Shown: piece by piece, positions 664 to 62,886 of the stretch | How the letters are laid out: the number at the start of each line of letters is the position of its first letter | How positions within the stretch are numbered: the first letter of the stretch is position 1 | Origin: Candidatus Buchananbacteria bacterium | GTDB lineage: Bacteria; Patescibacteriota; Patescibacteriia; Buchananbacterales; UBA6539 | Reading direction: 5' to 3' | DNA: 64,000 nucleotides | Assembly: GCA_013359225.1 (NCBI GenBank) | Contig: JABWCG010000001.1 | Span: 360,021-424,020 of the forward strand | Made by a program: the position numbers and the translations under genes | Notes under the pieces: generated by a model | The model's input: the letters and a program-made list of their open reading frames with translations, nothing else | Database searches by the model: none | What the model was told of the DNA's origin: nothing

Positions 664-2234
664 AAACTATTTTGGCCGAACTCTACCAGCTTGATCCGGA
701 ACTTAAAAAGTACGAGCCGGATTTGATTAGAATTGTCAGTGAGATTATCAAGGTAAAGCCAAACACTAAATTTGACAAAAAATTCGCAGCGCAGCTACGT
801 AGTCAGCTGCTAAGCGAAACAAAAACCTCTCAATCTAATTCATTACGCGATTTATTTAATATGAAAAAACTAGCTTACGCGCTCGGTGGGGCGGTATTAG
901 CGGCATTAGTAATGATTCCGCTACTAAAAAACCCTCAAACCGGGCAAATGTTAAACCTTAACGCTCCAACCCCGGAAGTTTTGGACATGTCATTAAAAAT
1001 CAGCCGCCTTGGCAACGAAGCATTTGGCTCGCTTGTTAACCAGACCGTTGATCAGCTTGCCGCCGCTCCGCAGGCGATGGCCGACGGCACCGAGGCGACT
1101 AATGAACGGTCGCAGTCTGGTGGCGGCACCCCCGCTGCGCCGGTACCGATGGGATTTGGTGGCGGTGCGGGCGTTACTGGAGTAAGTATTGACGCCAAAA
1201 TGATTGCGCCAGCAGAAGGGTTTGTCACCTATAAATATGTCTATGCCGGTGATGAACTGACACTAGACGAATCAACTGTTGACGTCTTTAAAAGGGTAAA
1301 AGGCTTAAACAACCAATCTTCATTGAATAGCTTACTGTCCGGTTTTAATCTTGGCTTACTCAACCTCGGTTCATTTGGCCAGTCAACCATTGATAACATT
1401 ACCGTGACTGAAAGCGGACGTTATGGTTACATGATTAATATCCAGGCTAATGAAGGTTTTATCAGCATCAACAAAAACTGGTTAACCTGGCCGCAGGTTA
1501 CCTGTACCGATCCAAACTGTGAAAACTTGCGGATTCGCGAAAGTGATATTCCGGCTGACGACGTGCTCATCAAACTGGCTAATGATTTTATTGCCAAACA
1601 TAACATCAGTCTTGAAGGTTATGGCAGTCCAGAGGTTCAGACCAATTGGCGGCTTGCTTACGAGCAAACTCAAAACAAGTCAGAATATTGGTTCCCAGAT
1701 ACTGTTAATGTCATTTATCCTCTTGAGATCAACGGTCAGCAAGCGTATGAACAGTATGGTACCGATAAAGTCGGCTTGATCGTCAGTATCGACGTTCGCG
1801 AGAAGAAAGTTGCCGGTCTAAGCAACCTTACCAACCAAAATTACCAAAGCTCTTCCTATCAGTCCGAAACTTCCGCTGAAAAAATTCTAGCATTCGCCGA
1901 ACGCGGCGGCATTAATGCCGGCTGGTGGGCTCCAGAAGACAGCAAGGTTGTAGAGGTCACTCTTGGCACCCCAACCAAAGAACTTATCAGATATTACCGC
2001 TACCAGAATAATCAAACTGAAGAACTGCTGATTCCGGCCCTCATTTTCCCGGTTACTAAACGTCCGGACAACAGCGAATACTTCTACGCCCAGAGCGTTG
2101 TCGTACCATTGGTTAGCGAGCTGCTCAACCAGGATAACGGCGGCGGGCCAATCAGAATTATGCCGGCCGGCGAACCTGCTCAAATCAAAGCTGACGAACC
2201 AGCGGCTAATCCCGGAATCCAAGAACTAAAATAA
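648..2234 (+). CDS. membrane-anchored protein, putative anti-sigma factor with large extracytoplasmic domain
   Basis: Translationally coupled to the ECF sigma gene. About 75 aa of cytoplasmic N-terminus are followed by a single TM segment (LAYALGGAVLAALVMIPLL), a Gly-rich linker (GGGTPAAPVPMGFGGGAGVTG) and a roughly 400-aa C-terminal domain. The anti-sigma role is inferred from this architecture only. Confidence 0.5.
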   Translation: MANEIKTILAELYQLDPELKKYEPDLIRIVSEIIKVKPNTKFDKKFAAQLRSQLLSETKTSQSNSLRDLFNMKKLAYALGGAVLAALVMIPLLKNPQTGQMLNLNAPTPEVLDMSLKISRLGNEAFGSLVNQTVDQLAAAPQAMADGTEATNERSQSGGGTPAAPVPMGFGGGAGVTGVSIDAKMIAPAEGFVTYKYVYAGDELTLDESTVDVFKRVKGLNNQSSLNSLLSGFNLGLLNLGSFGQSTIDNITVTESGRYGYMINIQANEGFISINKNWLTWPQVTCTDPNCENLRIRESDIPADDVLIKLANDFIAKHNISLEGYGSPEVQTNWRLAYEQTQNKSEYWFPDTVNVIYPLEINGQQAYEQYGTDKVGLIVSIDVREKKVAGLSNLTNQNYQSSSYQSETSAEKILAFAERGGINAGWWAPEDSKVVEVTLGTPTKELIRYYRYQNNQTEELLIPALIFPVTKRPDNSEYFYAQSVVVPLVSELLNQDNGGGPIRIMPAGEPAQIKADEPAANPGIQELK

Positions 2235-2405: not shown

Positions 2406-2435
2406 TGACACGACTACTAGGGTAGTGATATCATT
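2406..2435 (+). promoter_or_regulatory. sigma-70-type promoter for the ArsR-family gene
   Basis: -35 TTGACA at 2406-2411, an 18-bp spacer, and an extended -10 TGaTATCAT at 2427-2435. Confidence 0.5.
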
Positions 2436-2467
2436 TGAATACTTGCTCAAATAATAAATCAATTACA

Positions 2468-2773
2468 ATGCTTAATAATCAGGAGATTCAAAAAAACAAG
2501 AATATTCTAGCCAAAAATGATCGACAGATTAAAAACCGATGTAATCTGCATTATTTGTCGTCAGACCCGACTCGCCTGAAAATCCTGTTATTGCTAAAAA
2601 AACACGAAGAGCTTTGTGTTAGCGATTTGGCAAAAATAATTAATGTTACTGTCAGTGCGGTTTCACATCAGTTAAAATTGCTGGAAAATTGCGGCATTGT
2701 CAAAGGATCAAAAACGGGAAAGACAGTCTGCTACTGTCTGACAGACAAAAACCTTGAACTCATTATTGAATAA
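2468..2773 (+). CDS. ArsR/SmtB-family metalloregulatory transcriptional repressor
   Basis: Winged-HTH signature (DPTRLKILLLL ... LAKIINVTVSAVSHQLKLLENCGIV). The start is moved from the track ORF at 2435 to ATG 2468 because the promoter -10 overlaps 2435. Confidence 0.8.
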   Translation: MLNNQEIQKNKNILAKNDRQIKNRCNLHYLSSDPTRLKILLLLKKHEELCVSDLAKIINVTVSAVSHQLKLLENCGIVKGSKTGKTVCYCLTDKNLELIIE

Positions 2774-2800
2774 AAATAATTTTAAAGAAAGGAAAAACAT

Positions 2801-2913
2801 ATGTGCGATCATTGCTCTTGCGGCCATAATCATGACCACAAAAAAACTACCAAAGCCGAAAATCAGGCTGAGACTACCAAGCAGCAACATGAAAACTGTG
2901 CCTGCTGTTCATA
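2801..2913 (+). CDS. 37-aa Cys/His-rich small protein (metallothionein-like candidate)
   Basis: Read directly: ATG 2801 with AAAGGA 7 nt upstream, ending at TAA 2911-2913. It translates to MCDHCSCGHNHDHKKTTKAENQAETTKQQHENCACCS (6 Cys, 5 His). It is absent from the ORF track because it is under 60 aa. It lies between the ArsR/SmtB gene and the glutaredoxin gene. Confidence 0.45.
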
Positions 2914-2928
2914 AATTAGTGAATAAAT

Positions 2929-3177
2929 ATGATCAACCTAACAATTTACACCACTCCGACTTGCGTCTACTGCAAAATGGCAAAGGAGTTTTTTACCAGT
3001 AATAACATCAACTATCAGGAAATCAATGTTGCTGCTGATCAGGCGGCAGCCCGGACCATGGTTCAAAAATCCGGCCAGCTCGGCGTTCCGGTTATTACCG
3101 TAGAAAAAGATGGCAAAGAGGAAATTATTATTGGATTTGACCGGCCACGACTCTCCCAGTTGTTGGACATCAAATAA
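2929..3177 (+). CDS. glutaredoxin-like protein (NrdH/Grx family, CVYC active site)
   Basis: CxxC motif TPTCVYCKMAKEFF followed by a thioredoxin-fold C-terminus (GVPVITV...IIGFD). Confidence 0.75.
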   Translation: MINLTIYTTPTCVYCKMAKEFFTSNNINYQEINVAADQAAARTMVQKSGQLGVPVITVEKDGKEEIIIGFDRPRLSQLLDIK

Positions 3178-3203
3178 AAAATAATCAATGAAAGGAGTAC
3201 ATT

Positions 3204-3821
3204 ATGAACAATAGCGGATACAAACTGCCTGCATTACCATACAGTTATGATGCGTTGGAACCATTTATCGACCAGCAAACAATGCAGCTGCATCACGACA
3301 AACATCACCAAACGTATGTTGACAAGCTCAACGCGGCGCTAACCGGACATGAAGAACTTAAAATGAAATCTCCCGAAGAGTTAATCAGTAATTTGGAATC
3401 ACTACCAGCTGAAATCAAAACCGCTGTTCAAAATCATGGCGGGGGACACATTAACCATTCGCTGTTTTGGAATATTCTTAAAAAAGATACTGCTATCACC
3501 GGCGAAATTAAAGAAGCCATCACTACCCAATTCGGCAGTTTTGATGCTTTTAAAGAACAATTCAGTAAAGCTGCCCTCAACCAATTCGGTAGCGGCTGGG
3601 CCTGGCTTGTTGTTAATCAGGCCGGAGCACTTGAAATAACTGCTACTGCCAACCAAAACTCGCCACTGTCAGATGGCAAAATGCCAATTCTGGCACTTGA
3701 TATCTGGGAACATGCCTATTATCTCAAATATCAAAACAAGCGTCCGGATTATATTGAAGCCTTCTTTAATATTATCAACTGGGACGAAGTCAATAATAAC
3801 TATCGCGCCGCCAAGAAATAA
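3204..3821 (+). CDS. sodA: superoxide dismutase, Fe/Mn family
   Basis: Hallmark motifs [10 protein letters not shown] and [20 protein letters not shown] strong SD (AAAGGAG) precedes the ATG. Confidence 0.95.
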
Positions 3822-3830
3822 ATAACTTCT

Positions 3831-5471
3831 ATGAAAGCTTCTGACCTACTCGTTCAAGCGCTCGAAAATGAGGGAGTAACCCATATTTTTGGCGTTCCAG
3901 GTGAAGAAAATTTGGATTTGATTGATTCCCTGAGAGATTCAAAAATCAAATTGATTGTCACTCGCCACGAACAAGCCGCCGGTTTTATGGCCGCCACCGT
4001 CGGCCGGCTGACTGGCGTACCCGGCGTTGCACTTTCAACGCTTGGACCGGGTGCCACAAATTTAATTACTGCGGCAGCGTACGCCAATCTTGGCGGCATG
4101 CCGTTGTTTCTATTGACTGGACAAAAACCGGTTAAACGTAGTAAGCAGGGAAAATTTCAAATGATTGATACGGTACAAATTATGAAACCGGTTACCAAAT
4201 TTTCCAAACAGATCGTCTATAGTGAAAGCATCCCTGCGCTGGTTCGCGAAGCATTCAAAAAAGCCGAGAGCGAGCGACCGGGTGCGGTCCACCTGGAATT
4301 GCCCGAAGATGTTGCCGCTGAAAAGGTGACCGAAAAACTTTTCGCAGTCACCCAAGTCCGACGGCCCGTCGCCGACAGCAAGGCAATCAGCCTCGCTGTT
4401 GAAATGATCAAGTCAGCAAAACTACCACTGTTGGTTATTGGCGCCGCTGCCAACCGTAAACAGACTGCTAAAATGCTCCAAGAATTCATAGACAAAACCG
4501 GCATTTACTTTATTGACACCCAAATGGGCAAAGGAGTAATCGATGAACGCCACGAAAAATATCTGGGCACAGCCGCACTATCGGCCAACGATTATGTTCA
4601 CTGTGCGCTTGATCGGGCCGATCTGATTATCAACGTCGGCCACGATATCATTGAAAAGCCGCCGTTTATTATGGCCCCGGATAAAAAACAAAAAGTCATA
4701 CATATCAATTTTTTTCCGGCGGAAATCGATCAAATTTATTTCCCGCAACTTGAGGTGGTTGGAGATATTGCCAACGCCGTTTGGCAAATAAAAGAGCAGC
4801 TCCCGTCGATTAATTGGAATTTTGATTACTACCAAAAAGTCAAAACTCTGTGCGCCGAACAAATGAAAATTGCATCAGAACAGAAGAATTTTCCGTTAAG
4901 TCCTCAATCGATCGTCGAACAAATCCGTCAGGCTATGCCCGACGATGGTATCGTGGCGCTTGATAACGGAATGTATAAAGTGTGGTTTGCCCGGCAGTAC
5001 CAAACATATCAACCAAATACCTTACTGCTTGATAACGCCCTTGCCACAATGGGGGCTGGACTGCCATCGGCAATCGCCGCAAAAATTGTACATCCAAGAA
5101 AAAAGGTGTTAGCCGTTGTTGGCGACGGTGGTTTTATGATGAATTCTCAAGAATTAGAAACAGCTGTCCGGCTGGGACTTAATATAACGATTGTTATTAT
5201 TAACGACAACGGGTTTGGAATGATAAAATGGAAACAACAGGCGATGAAATTTCAAGATTTTGGCTTGAGCTACCATAATCCCGATTTTGTTGCCTATGCT
5301 CAAAGCTACGGTGCCAGCGGTCACCGAATTGAAAACAACCACTCATTAAAAAATACCATTGATCAATGCCTTAATACTCCAGGCGTTCACGTTATTGAAG
5401 TGCCGGTTGATTACTCGTATAACCACAAAATTCTAACCGAAGAATTAGCTAAAAAAACCTGTAATCTATAA
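3831..5471 (+). CDS. thiamine-pyrophosphate enzyme, acetolactate synthase large-subunit-like
   Basis: TPP-enzyme N-terminal motifs (GVPGEENLDLIDSL) and central/C-terminal TPP-binding motifs (GDGGFMMNSQELETA). Confidence 0.8.
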   Translation: MKASDLLVQALENEGVTHIFGVPGEENLDLIDSLRDSKIKLIVTRHEQAAGFMAATVGRLTGVPGVALSTLGPGATNLITAAAYANLGGMPLFLLTGQKPVKRSKQGKFQMIDTVQIMKPVTKFSKQIVYSESIPALVREAFKKAESERPGAVHLELPEDVAAEKVTEKLFAVTQVRRPVADSKAISLAVEMIKSAKLPLLVIGAAANRKQTAKMLQEFIDKTGIYFIDTQMGKGVIDERHEKYLGTAALSANDYVHCALDRADLIINVGHDIIEKPPFIMAPDKKQKVIHINFFPAEIDQIYFPQLEVVGDIANAVWQIKEQLPSINWNFDYYQKVKTLCAEQMKIASEQKNFPLSPQSIVEQIRQAMPDDGIVALDNGMYKVWFARQYQTYQPNTLLLDNALATMGAGLPSAIAAKIVHPRKKVLAVVGDGGFMMNSQELETAVRLGLNITIVIINDNGFGMIKWKQQAMKFQDFGLSYHNPDFVAYAQSYGASGHRIENNHSLKNTIDQCLNTPGVHVIEVPVDYSYNHKILTEELAKKTCNL

Positions 5472-57905: not shown

Positions 57906-58298
57906 TTACTTACTGACGGTAAACTTCTCGTACATTACCTGCTGTTCCTGATCACCCTTTAAATAAACCACCTTAATTTCATAATCACCGGGTTTAATAC
58001 CGGTAATTTCAGCGGCAAATTTTTGGCTGCAGCGCTGGTCGGTTTCATTGCCCTGCAAAGTCAGGATAAAGGTATTCATCTCCCGCTTTAGTACCCCCTT
58101 TACGTTTGCCACGTCACAGCTAAAGTCAGCAAATGGAATTTCCAATTTAAGTCCAGTACCAGTCGGCTCAACTTTAGTTACCGTTGAAAGCTCATTAATA
58201 AAACTGTACTGAACAGCGTATTCTTCTTTCAGATGGCAAGCGCTGAAAAACAGTGTTCCAAATAGCAGGGTAATAAAAAAGTAAATTCTTGGTTTCAT
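57906..58298 (-). CDS. hypothetical lipoprotein (130 aa)
   Basis: A signal peptide with lipobox FFSAC. Confidence 0.45.
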   Translation of the reverse strand: MKPRIYFFITLLFGTLFFSACHLKEEYAVQYSFINELSTVTKVEPTGTGLKLEIPFADFSCDVANVKGVLKREMNTFILTLQGNETDQRCSQKFAAEITGIKPGDYEIKVVYLKGDQEQQVMYEKFTVSK

Positions 58299-58326
58299 AT
58301 ATAAAAGTATAGCATAAAAATAAAAA

Positions 58327-58354
58327 GCGGGAAAAACCTGACGGATTTTCCCGC
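58327..58354 (-). terminator. terminator after thrC (GCGGGAAAA ... TTTTCCCGC)
   Basis: A 9-bp stem. The T-run lies on the minus strand (TTTTTATTTTTAT). Confidence 0.7.
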
Positions 58355-58371
58355 ATCTAACCCTTAATGAA

Positions 58372-59748
58372 CTAAAGCTTCATCAGCCGGGCCACTGTGT
58401 CCGGCTGGCAATCGTCGGCCAAAACCGGCTGAGTACCCTTTGGTTCCAGGAAGGGCTGACTGAATTTGAGTCCGTCGGCAGTGCAAATGACCACAACGGT
58501 TTCGCCTTCATGCACCAACCCTCGACTGACCGCTTTTTTCAGACCGGCCAACGCGACGCCGCTTTGCGGACAAACGAAATGGCCGTCTTTAGCGCAGGCC
58601 AGCACTGCCGGGTAAGCTTCCTGGTCAGAAGCGTCCAGAATCGCGCCGTTAGAGGCGATGATTTCCCGCATCACCTTGCGCTTAGACACCGGGTCGCCGA
58701 TTCTCATCGCCGTTGCCATTGTTTCGCCAACCTTAACCGGTTGGTAAATTTCAAGCCACTGCCGGACCAGTGCCGCCTGTTCATCGGCCGATAAATCCGG
58801 CCTGATGGCAATGTTCGGCCATGATATTGCCAGAGGGTTTGCAGCATTTGACTGGCAGCCAATAATCCGGGTCTGATGTTCAAACCCAAGGCTGGTCAGC
58901 AACCGTAAGGCCTTACCCACCGAACTGGCATTACTGCCATTACCAATCGGCACGAAAACGACATCAAGAGATTTCCAGCCGAACTGGCGAATCGCTTGAA
59001 AGACCGTTGTCTGATGTCCTTGAATCCGCGCCGGATTCAGACTGTTGCCAGGGTAAACCCCGCGCTTGACTAACTCACGAAATACTCGCATACAATCATC
59101 AAACGTTCCGGGCAGCAGGATCACTTGCGCGCCAAACAGCCTGACTTGCATCAGTTGCTCGGGCGTAATCTTGCCAGCCGGCAAGATGACTGTGCACTTA
59201 ATTCCGGCGTGGGCGCAAAATGCCGCCAGCGAAGCTGAGGTGTCACCCGTTGAAACACAGGCAATAAATTCGACACCGCCGGCTTTGGCGATGGAAACCA
59301 AGACGGTCATGCCATCGTCCTTGAAACTGCCGGTCGGATTTTTACCGCGAAGCGAAAGCCACAGCTTCAACGGCATGCCGATATATTCCTTAAGATGCCG
59401 TCCGGCCTCAACCAGCGGCACCAAGCCTTCACCAATCGAAACGATGTTGTCCGCCGATAAATCAGGCGCTACCCAGGGTTTGAAATCCCACACCCCGGAG
59501 TTAAAGTCTGACTTCCTGGCGAATAACGCCTTCCAATCGGCCGGGCGGTGATGTAGTGGTACCGGCACGATCATATCGTACAGATTGCCACAATCCGGGC
59601 ATGAAAAGGCCCGTTCAGTGAGCACGTCGGCTTTTCGGCCGCAGCCGATACATGACAGAAAAGACGTTTCTAATTCGTTCATATGTCCTCCCGGTCCGGT
59701 TAGGTTGGTTGTGAAAGGGACAAAAATAAGGTTTGAGACATTATTCAA
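58372..59748 (-). CDS. thrC: threonine synthase (with N-terminal zinc-ribbon)
   Basis: The PLP-lysine motif NPTGSFKDDG, an N-terminal C4 ribbon (CIGCGRK...CPDCGN) and a strong GGGAGGA SD. It lies in a high-GC block. Confidence 0.8.
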   Translation of the reverse strand: MNNVSNLIFVPFTTNLTGPGGHMNELETSFLSCIGCGRKADVLTERAFSCPDCGNLYDMIVPVPLHHRPADWKALFARKSDFNSGVWDFKPWVAPDLSADNIVSIGEGLVPLVEAGRHLKEYIGMPLKLWLSLRGKNPTGSFKDDGMTVLVSIAKAGGVEFIACVSTGDTSASLAAFCAHAGIKCTVILPAGKITPEQLMQVRLFGAQVILLPGTFDDCMRVFRELVKRGVYPGNSLNPARIQGHQTTVFQAIRQFGWKSLDVVFVPIGNGSNASSVGKALRLLTSLGFEHQTRIIGCQSNAANPLAISWPNIAIRPDLSADEQAALVRQWLEIYQPVKVGETMATAMRIGDPVSKRKVMREIIASNGAILDASDQEAYPAVLACAKDGHFVCPQSGVALAGLKKAVSRGLVHEGETVVVICTADGLKFSQPFLEPKGTQPVLADDCQPDTVARLMKL

Positions 59749-59828
59749 GCCTCAAAACACCTTAGACAAAAAATGCCGTTGCGTCAAGAAAAAACGAGCC
59801 TTGCAACCACAAGACTCGTCAAAAACCC

Positions 59829-60743
59829 TTAACGAACAAACAGACTGATTGGCACAACCACGATAGCGGTTGCGCCAGCCGCCTTCAATTCGGGGATCAG
59901 GCGCTCTACTGCCGACTCCTCAACAACCGCCTCCAAGGCAAAGCCTCCCGACTTCGAAAGATCCGACCTCGTCGGCTCGTCCGCCGACGGCAGAATTCGG
60001 CAGACATCACTGCAGTTTCTAGCCGCCACATTGCACTTGACAAGGACTTTGGTTCGCGCAGCAATCACGGCATTTAACAGCAGCCGAAATTCGGCGATGA
60101 TGTTTGCCTGAACCTTATTTTCCAGCGCCGCCGGATAAGTAATCAGACACGTCTGCGATTCCAGCGCCTGTTCAACAATGCGCCAGCCGCCGACTTTCAG
60201 CGAAAGCCCCGTTTCGGTGTTCTCAAAAATCGCGTCGGCCAAGCCATGAAACGCCTCAAGCGAACCATGAACATGAATGATATCGGGACTGACTCTCTTG
60301 CCATCAAGCCAGCGCCTGGCAAATGATGGATATTCGGTCGCCACCTCATGCTCTGGCATCAAATCAGTCACCGACTGGATCGGCGAATTTTCCGGCACCG
60401 CCAACACCAACTTAGTTGACCCGTACCCGCCACGCGACAACGGATACCTGTCTAAGACCACTACCTGGTCTTCAACGCCGGCCTCCGCAATCAAATCCTG
60501 AGCGGTAAACGCCAGTTCCGCCAAACCGCGGGCCACTACTTTAGGCGAATCCCACGGCCGCATTCGGCGAACAACATCAAACGGTGGCGCAAACAAACGC
60601 TTGTTGGCGATAATACCACGATACGATCGATCACCCCCCGGATAACTAACCGCACAATGGGCATCGGCAAGTAACCGGTGAATCACTTCCTTTAGTGATC
60701 CGTCCGGAACTACCAAGCGACATCCCTCACGACCCTCGTTCAA
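59829..60743 (-). CDS. hisG: ATP phosphoribosyltransferase, long form with C-terminal regulatory domain
   Basis: The periplasmic-binding-like catalytic fold and a C-terminal HisG_C-like segment (AAGATAIVVVPISLF). It overlaps hisI by 17 nt. Assignment is moderately confident. Confidence 0.65.
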   Translation of the reverse strand: MNEGREGCRLVVPDGSLKEVIHRLLADAHCAVSYPGGDRSYRGIIANKRLFAPPFDVVRRMRPWDSPKVVARGLAELAFTAQDLIAEAGVEDQVVVLDRYPLSRGGYGSTKLVLAVPENSPIQSVTDLMPEHEVATEYPSFARRWLDGKRVSPDIIHVHGSLEAFHGLADAIFENTETGLSLKVGGWRIVEQALESQTCLITYPAALENKVQANIIAEFRLLLNAVIAARTKVLVKCNVAARNCSDVCRILPSADEPTRSDLSKSGGFALEAVVEESAVERLIPELKAAGATAIVVVPISLFVR

Positions 60744-61125
60744 ATACGTATCCTCCTTCCTGCACTACACCATCAAGCTTAGTGAAAAAACAGCTTGGTT
60801 TACCAAAATGGCAGGCATACCCGTCGCCTGACACTTCAACCAAAAGTAGCACACAGTCTTTGTCGCAGTCAAGATAAGCGTCCCGGATTTTCATTGTGTT
60901 ACCGGATTCACCACCCTTATACCAAAGCAAATGGCGCGAAGTTGACCACAGCCAAACCTCGCCAGTCGCTTTAGTGTTTGACCAGGCTTCCTGATCAATA
61001 AAGCCGTGCATCAGTACCTCCTTTGTCCGGTAGTCCTGGACAATCGCCAGTACCAAACCGCCGCGCTGATTCAGCGACAAATCCAGTCGTGCTGAAAAAT
61101 CAGGAGCAAGCTCTTCTTTTTCCAT
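60727..61125 (-). CDS. hisI: phosphoribosyl-AMP cyclohydrolase (HisI domain only)
   Basis: LVLAIVQD ... the Cys-rich metal site (DCDKDCVLLLVE...GYACH). At 132 aa there is no HisE domain. Confidence 0.8.
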   Translation of the reverse strand: MEKEELAPDFSARLDLSLNQRGGLVLAIVQDYRTKEVLMHGFIDQEAWSNTKATGEVWLWSTSRHLLWYKGGESGNTMKIRDAYLDCDKDCVLLLVEVSGDGYACHFGKPSCFFTKLDGVVQEGGYVFERGS

Positions 61126-61186
61126 GTTCGTTCCCTCGCTTCTTGTGTTAAAAGATCAAAAAAACTTTTCTTACCCATAAGAAAAG

Positions 61187-61203
61187 CCCCGCCGAAGGCG
61201 GGG
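61187..61203 (-). terminator. terminator after yerC-like gene (CCCCGCC GAA GGCGGGG)
   Basis: A 7-bp GC stem with a moderately T-rich tract on the minus strand. Confidence 0.5.
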
Positions 61204-61294
61204 TAAGCTGACATTATCAAAAAATATCAAATTACCTCGACTCCGGCGAGTTTATTTGATGATGATTAAATTTTTGATTTATTACTGCAACCAT

Positions 61295-61588
61295 TTATTT
61301 ATCAATCCTTTTTAGGGCAAGATTATAGCCTCCCTCGCCGCGGTACAGCCAATGGGCCACGCGCGCTACTGTCGTAGTGCTTAAACCGGTTTGTCGCGCT
61401 ACTTCGCGGTATGACTTGTTTTGATTAAGTAACCGTACTGCCTGCCACCGTTTTGAAAATTCAGTGATTTCTTCAATCGTCAATAAATCGCGAAAAAACC
61501 GTCGGCAATCTTGAGTGGTTTTCAGACTTAAAATAGCACGATATAGCGCGTCAATCTGACTATGGTGCCCCTGGTGAGTTCCTTTCAT
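61295..61588 (-). CDS. TrpR-related YerC/YecD-family DNA-binding protein
   Basis: A 97-aa protein with a C-terminal HTH (YREVARQTGLSTTTVARVAHWL) and the YerC/YecD pattern. Confidence 0.7.
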   Translation of the reverse strand: MKGTHQGHHSQIDALYRAILSLKTTQDCRRFFRDLLTIEEITEFSKRWQAVRLLNQNKSYREVARQTGLSTTTVARVAHWLYRGEGGYNLALKRIDK

Positions 61589-61611
61589 ATTAGTGGTGAT
61601 TAGTTCTGTAT

Positions 61612-61637
61612 TACTGTATTAATATATTAATACAGTA
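61612..61637. promoter_or_regulatory. 26-bp perfect palindrome TACTGTATTAATATATTAATACAGTA upstream of yerC-like gene (candidate operator)
   Basis: An exact reverse-complement palindrome centred about 36 bp upstream of the yerC-like start. It has CTGT/ACAG arms like LexA/SOS boxes, but a 14-bp rather than 8-bp spacer. Confidence 0.5.
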
Positions 61638-61684
61638 GCATAAGACAAAAAAACTGTCAAGCGGGCGCCTTATTTAATAATCAT

Positions 61685-61710
61685 AAAACCCGAAACATGT
61701 TTCGGGTTTT
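61685..61710. terminator. palindromic bidirectional terminator AAAACCCGAAACATGTTTCGGGTTTT
   Basis: A perfect palindrome 10 nt downstream of the Cys-rich peptide stop. It terminates the gap-peptide transcript on the minus strand. Confidence 0.7.
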
Positions 61711-61720
61711 ATGATATTTT

Positions 61721-61837
61721 TTAATTACAGTCGCAAGTACAGCCCGGTTCGTGATCACAGCAATTTTTGCAAACGTCGCTCTGACAGCTGCAACGGATAT
61801 CATTGGTGATTTCCTCACCGCAATGTTGACACTCCAT
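61721..61837 (-). CDS. 38-aa Cys-rich small protein (10 Cys; metallothionein-like / zinc-ribbon-like)
   Basis: Read directly on the minus strand: ATG at 61837, TAA at 61721-61723. It translates to MECQHCGEEITNDIRCSCQSDVCKNCCDHEPGCTCDCN. It lies 26 nt downstream of the gap stop and shares CxHC / CSC / NCxC motifs with the peptide at 2801-2913. The 270-aa + strand ORF covering it is antisense to gap and is rejected. Confidence 0.4.
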   Translation of the reverse strand: MECQHCGEEITNDIRCSCQSDVCKNCCDHEPGCTCDCN

Positions 61838-61863
61838 ACTTTACTTTTTTATTTTTTATTTAA

Positions 61864-62886
61864 TTATTTTATTAGTTTACCAATTTGTCCGGCGATGTCA
61901 ATAAGTCTGGTGCTATATCCCCATTCATTATCATACCACGCTAAAATTTTTACCATATTACCGCCAACCACCCTCGTAAATTCCAAGTCCACAATTGAAG
62001 AATACGGACTTTTTACAAAGTCTGAAGAAACTAAAGGTTTGTCGGAAACCGCCAAAACATTTTTGAAGGCCGGATTTTTGACAGCTTGTTTAAACTCGTC
62101 ATTAATTTCCTCAACAGTAACTGTCTTTTTCTTTAATACTGCCGTAATATCAGACACTGATCCGGTAATCACCGGCACCCGCAACGCAATACCGTCAAAC
62201 AAATTATTTAAGCTCTTGACTACCTTCGTGGTCGCAATCGCCGCGCCGGTTGAAGTAGGGATAATGTTTTGTGCCGCTGCGCGCGCTCGACGCAAATCTT
62301 TACTGGGGCCATCAACTAAATTCTGGGTTGAAGTATATGCATGCACAGTAGTCATCATGGCCTTTTCAATACCAAACTTTGATTCTAAAACCTGCATCAC
62401 TGGCGAAATACAGTTGGTAGTGCAAGATGCCATGGAAACAATTTTTTCGTGCTTGCCGGTTTTAACCCGCTCATTTGAATCTTTGGTTCCCAAAACCATT
62501 GTTTGGGTTTCATCTTTAGCTGGCGCAGAAATTACCACTCGCTTGGCTCCGGCACGCAAATGAGCCGATGCAGCTTCAGTGGTTTTAAATATACCGGTAC
62601 ACTCTAAAACGACATCAACCCGATGGGCTGCCCATGGTAACTGTGAAGGGTCTTTCTGATTAAACACCGGGTACAATCTACCATCAACCTTAATACCTTC
62701 TTTAGTGCCCTGAATTACTCCCGGCTGCTCGCCGTAGACAGTATCATATTTCAATAAATGAGCTAAAGTCTTATTGTCCATTAGATCATTGATGGCGACA
62801 ACCTCAATGTCCTTTCGCGTCAATGCGATTTTAAATGCAGCCCGGCCAATTCGGCCAAAACCATTAATAGCTATTCGTGTTGGCAT
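61864..62886 (-). CDS. gap: glyceraldehyde-3-phosphate dehydrogenase
   Basis: The NAD motif INGFGRIGR and the catalytic ASCTTNC motif. Confidence 0.95.
   Translation of the reverse strand: MPTRIAINGFGRIGRAAFKIALTRKDIEVVAINDLMDNKTLAHLLKYDTVYGEQPGVIQGTKEGIKVDGRLYPVFNQKDPSQLPWAAHRVDVVLECTGIFKTTEAASAHLRAGAKRVVISAPAKDETQTMVLGTKDSNERVKTGKHEKIVSMASCTTNCISPVMQVLESKFGIEKAMMTTVHAYTSTQNLVDGPSKDLRRARAAAQNIIPTSTGAAIATTKVVKSLNNLFDGIALRVPVITGSVSDITAVLKKKTVTVEEINDEFKQAVKNPAFKNVLAVSDKPLVSSDFVKSPYSSIVDLEFTRVVGGNMVKILAWYDNEWGYSTRLIDIAGQIGKLIK

Follow-up and report, generated by a model that had tools for sequence, protein, structure and literature searches.

A minus-strand open reading frame (ORF) in the analysed window, a 64,000-nucleotide stretch of Candidatus Buchananbacteria DNA, encodes a microprotein of 38 amino acids with 10 Cys (MECQHCGEEITNDIRCSCQSDVCKNCCDHEPGCTCDCN), reads from ATG to TAA and is almost certainly a translated, selected gene of a conserved family. 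By sequence comparison, this family is large and previously undescribed, and it is known so far only from the Candidate Phyla Radiation (CPR)/Patescibacteria. Its eleven invariant Cys/His positions probably bind metal, because a ligand swap at position 29, the amino acid composition and an operon under a Cu-sensing repressor all point in that direction. A metallothionein-like Cu(I)/Zn(II) buffer or store is the physiological role that we favour, with moderate confidence.

The coordinates of the features discussed are collected in Table 1. A sequence-only reading of this DNA had put the start of the 38-residue, 10-Cys ORF 26 nt past the stop codon of gap, which the sequence and the ORF reading confirmed. 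The gap protein of the window was 100% identical to a Candidatus Buchananbacteria MAG protein, and gap is the probable upstream cistron of the microprotein transcript. The palindromic terminator that had been described downstream is present and is a perfect palindrome, but it begins 5 nt past the microprotein TAA instead of 10 nt, which is a minor correction. As RNA, the palindrome had a folding energy of −21.3 kcal/mol (z = −5.9 against shuffles). The Cys count of 10 in 38 residues was the highest among all stop-to-stop segments of the window (the runner-up had 6), and the ORF exceeds chance, since the maximum Cys count per segment reached only 5 to 8 in 40 whole-window shuffles. The 270-aa ORF that had been pointed out on the opposite strand does exist and is an antisense shadow of gap.

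Table 1. Coordinates of the features discussed. Positions are those of the window unless a contig handle is given
Feature	Location	Strand	Basis or remark
Cys-rich microprotein CDS	61721..61837	-	Stop codon 61721..61723; ORF reading, synteny, dN/dS, family alignment
Putative metal ligands of the microprotein	C3, C6, C16, C18, C23, C26, C27, H29, C33, C35, C37		
Syntenic orthologues of the microprotein ORF	L001 4014..4130; L004 4115..4237		
A-rich spacer, gap stop to microprotein ATG, 26 nt	61838..61863	-	Without Shine-Dalgarno motif, without hairpin
gap, type I glyceraldehyde-3-phosphate dehydrogenase	61864..62886	-	Pfam Gp_dh_N E 3e-36, Gp_dh_C E 1e-56
Perfect 36-nt palindrome, intrinsic-terminator-like hairpin (16-bp stem, 4-nt loop)	61680..61715	.	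Downstream of microprotein gene
Sigma-70-like promoter match, TTGACA-16-TG-TAAACT, in 3' end of gap	61874..61901	-	Consensus scan, 10/12 matches plus TG
270-aa ORF, antisense shadow of gap	61751..62563	+	ORF list
trpR-like gene	61295..61588	-	PF01371
Promoter of trpR-like gene	61616..61660	-	TTGACA, 17-nt spacer with extended -10 TG, TACTGT
Palindrome GTATTAATATATTAATAC	61633..61616		Overlaps -10 of trpR-like gene
GC-rich region	58000..61200		GC 0.50-0.53 against ~0.40 elsewhere
PLP-dependent enzyme, in GC-rich region downstream of trpR-like gene	58374..59682		
HisG, in the same region	59832..60743		
HisI/PRA-CH, in the same region	60730..61125		
Second small metal-type cluster	2435..3821	+	ArsR-family regulator, peptide, glutaredoxin
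Peptide of that cluster, 37 aa	2801..2914	+	6 Cys, 6 His
ORF of 205 aa, presumed superoxide dismutase	3204..3821	+	Judged from sequence
Public gene call, 70-aa ORF	L004 4146..4358		Other frame, overlaps Cys-rich ORF
Mis-annotation case	L004 4115..4358		
Long spacers before trpR-like gene	L003 4021..4620; L004 4359..5095		600-740 bp
csoR-microprotein operon	L224 8218..10850	-	Operator ATACACCCCCCATAGGGGGGTAT

Co-transcription of the microprotein gene with gap is plausible because the 26-nt spacer holds no hairpin and because gap and the peptide gene adjoin each other in 9 loci of the family. The promoter match in the 3' end of gap could, with some uncertainty, be an internal promoter for the microprotein; its conservation in a close relative (L001, below) is uninformative because it lies inside coding sequence. 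The spacer was likewise conserved in L001. The missing Shine-Dalgarno motif is no argument against translation, since an SD-like motif was found within 20 nt upstream of the first ATG in only 3 of the 44 long ORFs of the window. Judging from these 44 ORFs across the whole window, most translation in this genome seems to begin at A/T-rich leaders that lack the motif. An Rfam scan of positions 61200..62000 returned no family above the gathering score and only sub-threshold hairpin matches.

Contigs encoding close gap orthologues were examined, and the ORFs on two of them, L001 and L004, were located by synteny and not by peptide sequence. A 38-codon ORF (MDCEYCGNEITDDIKCSCQGNICKNCCDHEPGCNCECN) occupies the same site in L001, where gap is 88% identical, and a Cys-rich ORF (MECTKCSMSIDDNSVCSCESGVCCHCCGCDSGCTCGCKEK) occupies it in L004, where gap is 75% identical. 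Both preserve the reading frame and its length together with every one of the 10 Cys. Frame-disrupting indels in relatives, which had been named as a possible refutation, were sought and none were found. The comparison of dN/dS that had been proposed alongside indicated purifying selection, with a value of 0.15 (dS ~1.0) for the window microprotein against L001 and 0.04 for gap itself. Third codon positions took 13 of the 23 nucleotide differences between the window and L001 ORFs, three to four Cys codons switched between TGT and TGC with none lost, and the Ser17 codon, AGC in the window, was TCT in L004. A different hairpin lies downstream of the ORF in L001; because this terminator differs from that of the window, the ORF has outlasted a turnover of its flank. 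In L002 and L003 (gap 79–80% identical, with the gap-trpR synteny in common), the ORF was absent and no remnant was found, so that its presence at the gap site is patchy. The spacers leading to the trpR-like gene from gap in L003 or from the peptide gene in L004 were unusually long, and neither a convincing ORF nor an Rfam family reaching the gathering threshold was found in them.

The sequence-only reading had expected the antisense ORF to mislead automated annotation, and annotation does miss the microprotein gene. Neither the window peptide nor its orthologues in L001 and L004 occur in a collection of 15 billion proteins in which the adjacent gap protein of the same record is present. A phmmer search of the window peptide against 1.84 billion representative proteins gave no match, and neither did an exact-sequence look-up of the peptide among contigs. 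In L004, the public gene call is an ORF in another frame that overlaps the Cys-rich ORF, and this stretch is a concrete case of mis-annotation for the microprotein family.

Further members were collected by using degenerate-codon DNA patterns. A loose 8-Cys pattern was dominated by TGY simple repeats and gave two true matches in genome contigs, L005 and the Candidatus Paceibacterota contig L096. A tighter pattern, to which VAN, RTN and GRN codons were added, was applied to metagenome contigs and gave at least 120 loci; a DNA scan of viral contigs returned one repeat and no family member. A profile search recovered 10 database proteins of the family among 5.8 billion protein clusters. The metagenome loci, L005, L096 and the 10 database proteins amounted to at least 119 distinct peptides. 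Nearly all matches were compact ATG-to-stop ORFs of 38–75 codons, with a family median of 46 aa, and two copies per locus were present in L126 and L151. Among the matches listed, all taxonomically placeable members belonged to CPR/Patescibacteria (Buchananbacteria, Portnoybacteria, Paceibacterota and Patescibacteria group); with at least 120 loci, the distribution and the restriction to CPR are lower-bound statements. The L005 contig (CAZUFD010000003.1) is labelled as an uncultured Gammaproteobacteria, and its AtpD was 95–96% identical to Candidatus Magasanikbacteria proteins; it is probably mis-binned or mislabelled.

The family consensus is xxKCxKCGMPLxxxxxCSCxxxVCxHCCxCxxxCxCGCxxKx, and the Cys pattern is C-x(1,2)-C-x(9,10)-CxC-x4-CxxCCxC-x3-CxCxC. 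All 11 ligand positions were invariant across the 119 members, with a fixed core spacing and no indels, a result that carries an ascertainment bias in that 8 of the 11 invariant Cys were demanded by the DNA pattern that gathered most members. Several features were not imposed by that pattern. The N-terminal Cys pair was present in 119/119 members (CxxC in 76, CxC in 43). Position 29 was Cys in 116 members and His in three, the window copy included, and nothing else; this Cys/His exchange has the appearance of a classic metal-ligand swap. A G-M-P-L/I motif follows the first Cys pair, for which the window copy has GEEI instead, and V/I22 and G36 are the other conserved non-Cys residues. In addition, several of the proteins found by profile lie outside the DNA pattern and yet kept every Cys. 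The CxxC-x16-CxxC spacing that had been noticed in the window peptide (C3/C6 and C23/C26), along with its CxC and CC pairs, is present, but the plain zinc-ribbon reading drawn from it proved too narrow, given that the first pair is CxC and not CxxC in 43 of the 119 members.

Cys made up 10 of the 38 residues (26%) of the window protein and 23.5% of residues across the family. The family was also rich in Glu (13.7%) and Lys (10.9%), L, V, I, F, M and W together contributed about 12%, and the median net charge was −4. Aromatic residues were absent from the window protein, and the family median was one. CxC, CC and CxCxC motifs are present in the core CxC-x4-CxxCCxC-x3-CxCxC, and the C-terminal tails of some members contained extra Cys motifs or long acidic stretches. 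The peptides share these operational traits of metallothioneins: a size below 10 kDa, a very high Cys content with CxC, CxxC and CC motifs, and few aromatic or hydrophobic residues.

No significant match was obtained when 46 members were compared to Pfam, NCBIfam, PHROGs and PADLOC. The best Pfam score was to Metallothio_5 (E 0.12, 3/46 members), and the single marginal NCBIfam match was to ndhI (E 0.54, 1/46). The family profile matched no PDB chain at E values up to 10, and hhalign returned 2% for SmtA and 1% for human MT2. The AlphaFold2 pLDDT was 54 (window peptide) and 52 (P0122), and these low-confidence models, which give no usable structure, showed only short beta bridges; the low pLDDT is indirect evidence, consistent with a fold that might depend on metal. 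No description of the family was found in curated libraries or the searchable literature, and a search of that literature for a metallothionein or Cys-rich small protein of CPR/Patescibacteria returned nothing relevant.

Genomic context was surveyed over 111 non-redundant loci. Of 95 nearest upstream ORFs, 84 were co-oriented, the median distance being 79 bp, and a hairpin of −12 kcal/mol or lower was found within 70 nt downstream at 74/110 loci as opposed to 20/111 upstream. Because of these co-oriented upstream ORFs and downstream hairpins, the gene can be said to end its transcription unit in most cases. The recurring upstream neighbours were an M23 peptidase (11 loci), gap (9 loci) and the ATP synthase epsilon subunit, atpC (9 loci). 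About 90% of the family loci, including that of the window, had no metal-related neighbour, and radical-SAM, lanthipeptide and peptidase-exporter families were absent from the 25 most shared Pfam families of 150 non-redundant immediate neighbours.

A link to metal was seen in a few lineages. In L214, L224 and L226, the microprotein gene lies 7–42 bp after a CsoR-family gene (PF02583) whose product has Cys33, His58 and Cys62. We take this spacing to be that of the Cu(I) ligands C36/H61/C65 of M. tuberculosis CsoR. The csoR operon starts with TTGACA-17-TATAAT, followed immediately by ATACCCCCC-N3-GGGGGGTAT, in agreement with ATATACCCCTNAGGGGTATAT, the published CsoR operator of type 2, and with the TAC-X9-GTA G-tract rule for it (PMC3902906). 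L199 carries the same operator box. The L224 operon comprises the promoter, the CsoR operator, csoR, the peptide gene, a membrane-anchored CPHC glutaredoxin/thioredoxin-like protein and a ZIP transporter, and no CopA-type ATPase was seen in it or in L214, L226 and L199. Clusters of this type form a putative compact copper-responsive operon in CPR. The CsoR-linked loci come from one closely related lineage and were counted as a single evolutionary event. ZIP genes were found within 0.1–3.6 kb of the peptide gene in three separate peptide lineages, and ArsR-family genes follow it in two. These ArsR neighbours were considered as SmtB-like sensors and rejected, as they lack both Cys and an alpha-5 His/Asp site. 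The window copy had no CsoR gene or operator nearby.

The metal-binding reading that was originally offered for the window peptide fits all of the family evidence. Under the buffer reading, the gene would be transcribed with gap, or from a promoter within the end of gap, and the transcript would stop at the downstream hairpin; translation would begin from the A-rich leader without a Shine-Dalgarno motif, like that of most genes of this genome. The apo-peptide, lacking a hydrophobic core, would fold only around several metal ions, with the ten Cys thiolates and His29 wrapping these metals in metallothionein-type thiolate clusters. By analogy with other eleven-ligand proteins, its capacity might be around 3–4 Zn(II)/Cd(II) or a larger number of Cu(I), and one tetrahedral site may arise from the N-terminal CxxCG knuckle together with C23xxC26. 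The protein would then buffer or store Cu(I)/Zn(II) in the cytosol, being made constitutively here with a housekeeping gene and de-repressed by a Cu(I)-sensing CsoR in some relatives. Against this stand the roughly 90% of loci without metal neighbours and a metal link that is based on few lineages.

The main rival to the buffer reading is a structural multi-zinc microprotein, similar to a zinc ribbon or treble clef, that binds a partner protein or nucleic acid and does not buffer metal. The CxxCG knuckle with a CxxC 16 residues on fits a zinc ribbon, and the majority of copies close a housekeeping operon (gap, ftsEX-M23 peptidase, atp) at its 3' end, away from any metal genes; the invariant core spacing and the conserved GMP[LI], V/I22 and G36 would suit a partner-binding module equally well. 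We nevertheless consider this role unlikely. The CxC form of the first pair in 43/119 members and the variable extra Cys motifs in the tails of some members are at odds with it, and eleven ligands in about 35 residues far exceed the needs of a fold. Furthermore, there was no Pfam zinc-ribbon match and no single conserved neighbour as a candidate partner, and in one subclade the gene belongs to an operon under CsoR control that also encodes a ZIP transporter.

A redox-active thiol or Fe-S protein, possibly serving as a thiol buffer in organisms without glutathione, is improbable. The very high Cys content could be read in this way, as could the thioredoxin- or glutaredoxin-like CPHC proteins encoded directly downstream in 5 loci and the desulfoferrodoxin gene in one locus. 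However, these thioredoxin-like neighbours are N-terminally membrane-anchored and so probably located outside the cytoplasm, the Cys-to-His swap at position 29 suits Zn/Cu ligation better than disulfides, and the peptides have no ferredoxin-type CxxCxxCxxxCP motif, with the ndhI hit as the one marginal match.

We regard as very improbable a RiPP or secreted Cys-rich precursor (sactipeptide, ranthipeptide, lanthipeptide or bacteriocin). Small size, Cys richness, the lack of annotation and the double copies of L126 and L151 would agree with such a product, but the first Cys pair begins at a median of residue 5, leaving no leader region, and the peptides lack both a signal peptide and any hydrophobic stretch. 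They are acidic, their tails are rich in Lys and Glu, NCBIfam gave no SCIFF or RiPP match, and no radical-SAM, lanthipeptide-synthetase or C39-peptidase family was among the shared neighbour families described above. It is scarcely credible that the ORF is a functionless Cys-codon leader peptide at which stalling sets the terminator hairpin and thereby trpR-like and his expression: Cys takes 10 of the 38 codons, the stop lies 5 nt before a strong hairpin, a same-strand gene follows and most family members have a hairpin downstream, but the non-Cys positions are under purifying selection (dN/dS 0.15) and the Cys spacing is invariant, the downstream genes are heterogeneous (with a convergent integrase in 8 loci), the fold shows a single hairpin and no alternative anti-terminator pairing, and past the hairpin the trpR-like gene is served by a conserved promoter and operator of its own.

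The family lies outside every known metallothionein sequence family and yet, if the buffer reading is correct, would be metallothionein-like in behaviour. To our knowledge, few bacterial metallothionein families have been recognised: SmtA/BmtA, MymT and a few others. SmtA of Synechococcus is well folded: it binds 4 Zn and adopts a GATA-type zinc-finger fold (PMC10612145). Like SmtA/BmtA, the microproteins are small bacterial proteins, presumably cytosolic, with about 11 Cys/His ligand positions, an occasional His ligand and a fixed spacing that implies a defined metal-dependent fold, and the gene sometimes adjoins that of a metal sensor. They differ in having no detectable sequence relationship (no profile match to PF02069, the SmtA/BmtA family, and no match to the solved SmtA structure), another Cys pattern and other taxa, the family being so far CPR. 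Their ArsR neighbours are also without an obvious SmtB-type metal site, unlike in the SmtA system. MymT is a mycobacterial Cu metallothionein that is controlled by the CsoR paralogue RicR and confined to pathogenic mycobacteria (PMC3944814). It is likewise tiny and Cys-rich, and one microprotein subclade is predicted to be under a CsoR-family Cu(I) sensor via a G-tract palindromic operator; by its description, however, MymT is set apart as an unrelated sequence family, and the window copy is without CsoR.

Similarities to other small metal-binding proteins were also only partial. The alpha-domain of vertebrate metallothionein has 11 Cys around an M4S11 cluster. It shares with the microproteins eleven ligands in about 30–35 residues, the CC, CxC and CxxC motifs, the lack of a hydrophobic core and an unfolded apo form, but homology is absent (hhalign 1%, human MT2), and only the microproteins have conserved non-Cys residues, a CxxCG knuckle and an aromatic residue or His before CC. 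The archaeal CPxCG zinc-ribbon/rubredoxin-knuckle micro-proteins are comparable in their N-terminal CxxCG, in the second CxxC 16 residues on, in very small size and in usually being missed by annotation, whereas the present family has seven further invariant ligands and a first knuckle of CxC in 36% of members. CopZ is a Cu chaperone of about 70 aa with a ferredoxin fold and a single MxCxxC site, which follows csoR in Firmicute csoR-copZ-copA loci. The CsoR-linked microprotein occupies the same slot, as a small gene after csoR behind a CsoR operator, although its operon (L224) has a ZIP transporter and no CopA P-type ATPase.

The CPR makes up a very large share of bacterial diversity; its members have tiny genomes, and how they handle metals is poorly understood. 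We tentatively entertain a broader possibility, that the microproteins are a CPR-wide metallothionein family with a cluster architecture of its own (about 3–4 M(II) or more Cu(I) on Cys10-11/His0-1) and the main cytosolic Cu/Zn buffer of these ultra-small bacteria, with the window copy as the first member to be recognised; the family would have gone unnoticed since ORFs of 38–50 codons are dropped by gene callers and protein databases. Such genes are systematically missing from annotations and databases, as is evident from the contrast between 10 proteins among 5.8 billion protein clusters and at least 120 DNA loci. A conserved and widespread protein of 40–50 residues with eleven invariant ligands would be an easily synthesised target for work on Cu/Zn buffering in CPR, and the family may turn out to have a metal-cluster fold of a new kind.

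A second small metal-type cluster is located near the start of the window and consists of an ArsR-family regulator (PF01022, ELCVSDL motif), a Cys- and His-containing peptide, a glutaredoxin (PF00462) and an ORF that presumably encodes superoxide dismutase. The protein collection contained one further exact copy of this peptide, from a Logan contig. The sequence-only reading had regarded it as kin to the microprotein, which did not hold: hhalign gave a probability of 0.7% over 4 aligned columns, the context (ArsR-glutaredoxin-SOD) is different, and a relaxed regular expression for the family matched the window only at 61727..61831, so that the supposed second copy is not a family member.

On the other side of the terminator, the promoter of the trpR-like gene was conserved in L001 (~4183..4225) and L002 (~1745..1785). 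The perfect palindrome GTATTAATATATTAATAC that overlaps its -10 element was conserved in relatives, and the trpR-like gene probably uses it as an operator for autoregulation. The genes downstream of it fall within a region of elevated GC, and the synteny from trpR-like to his genes was also found in L002 and L003.
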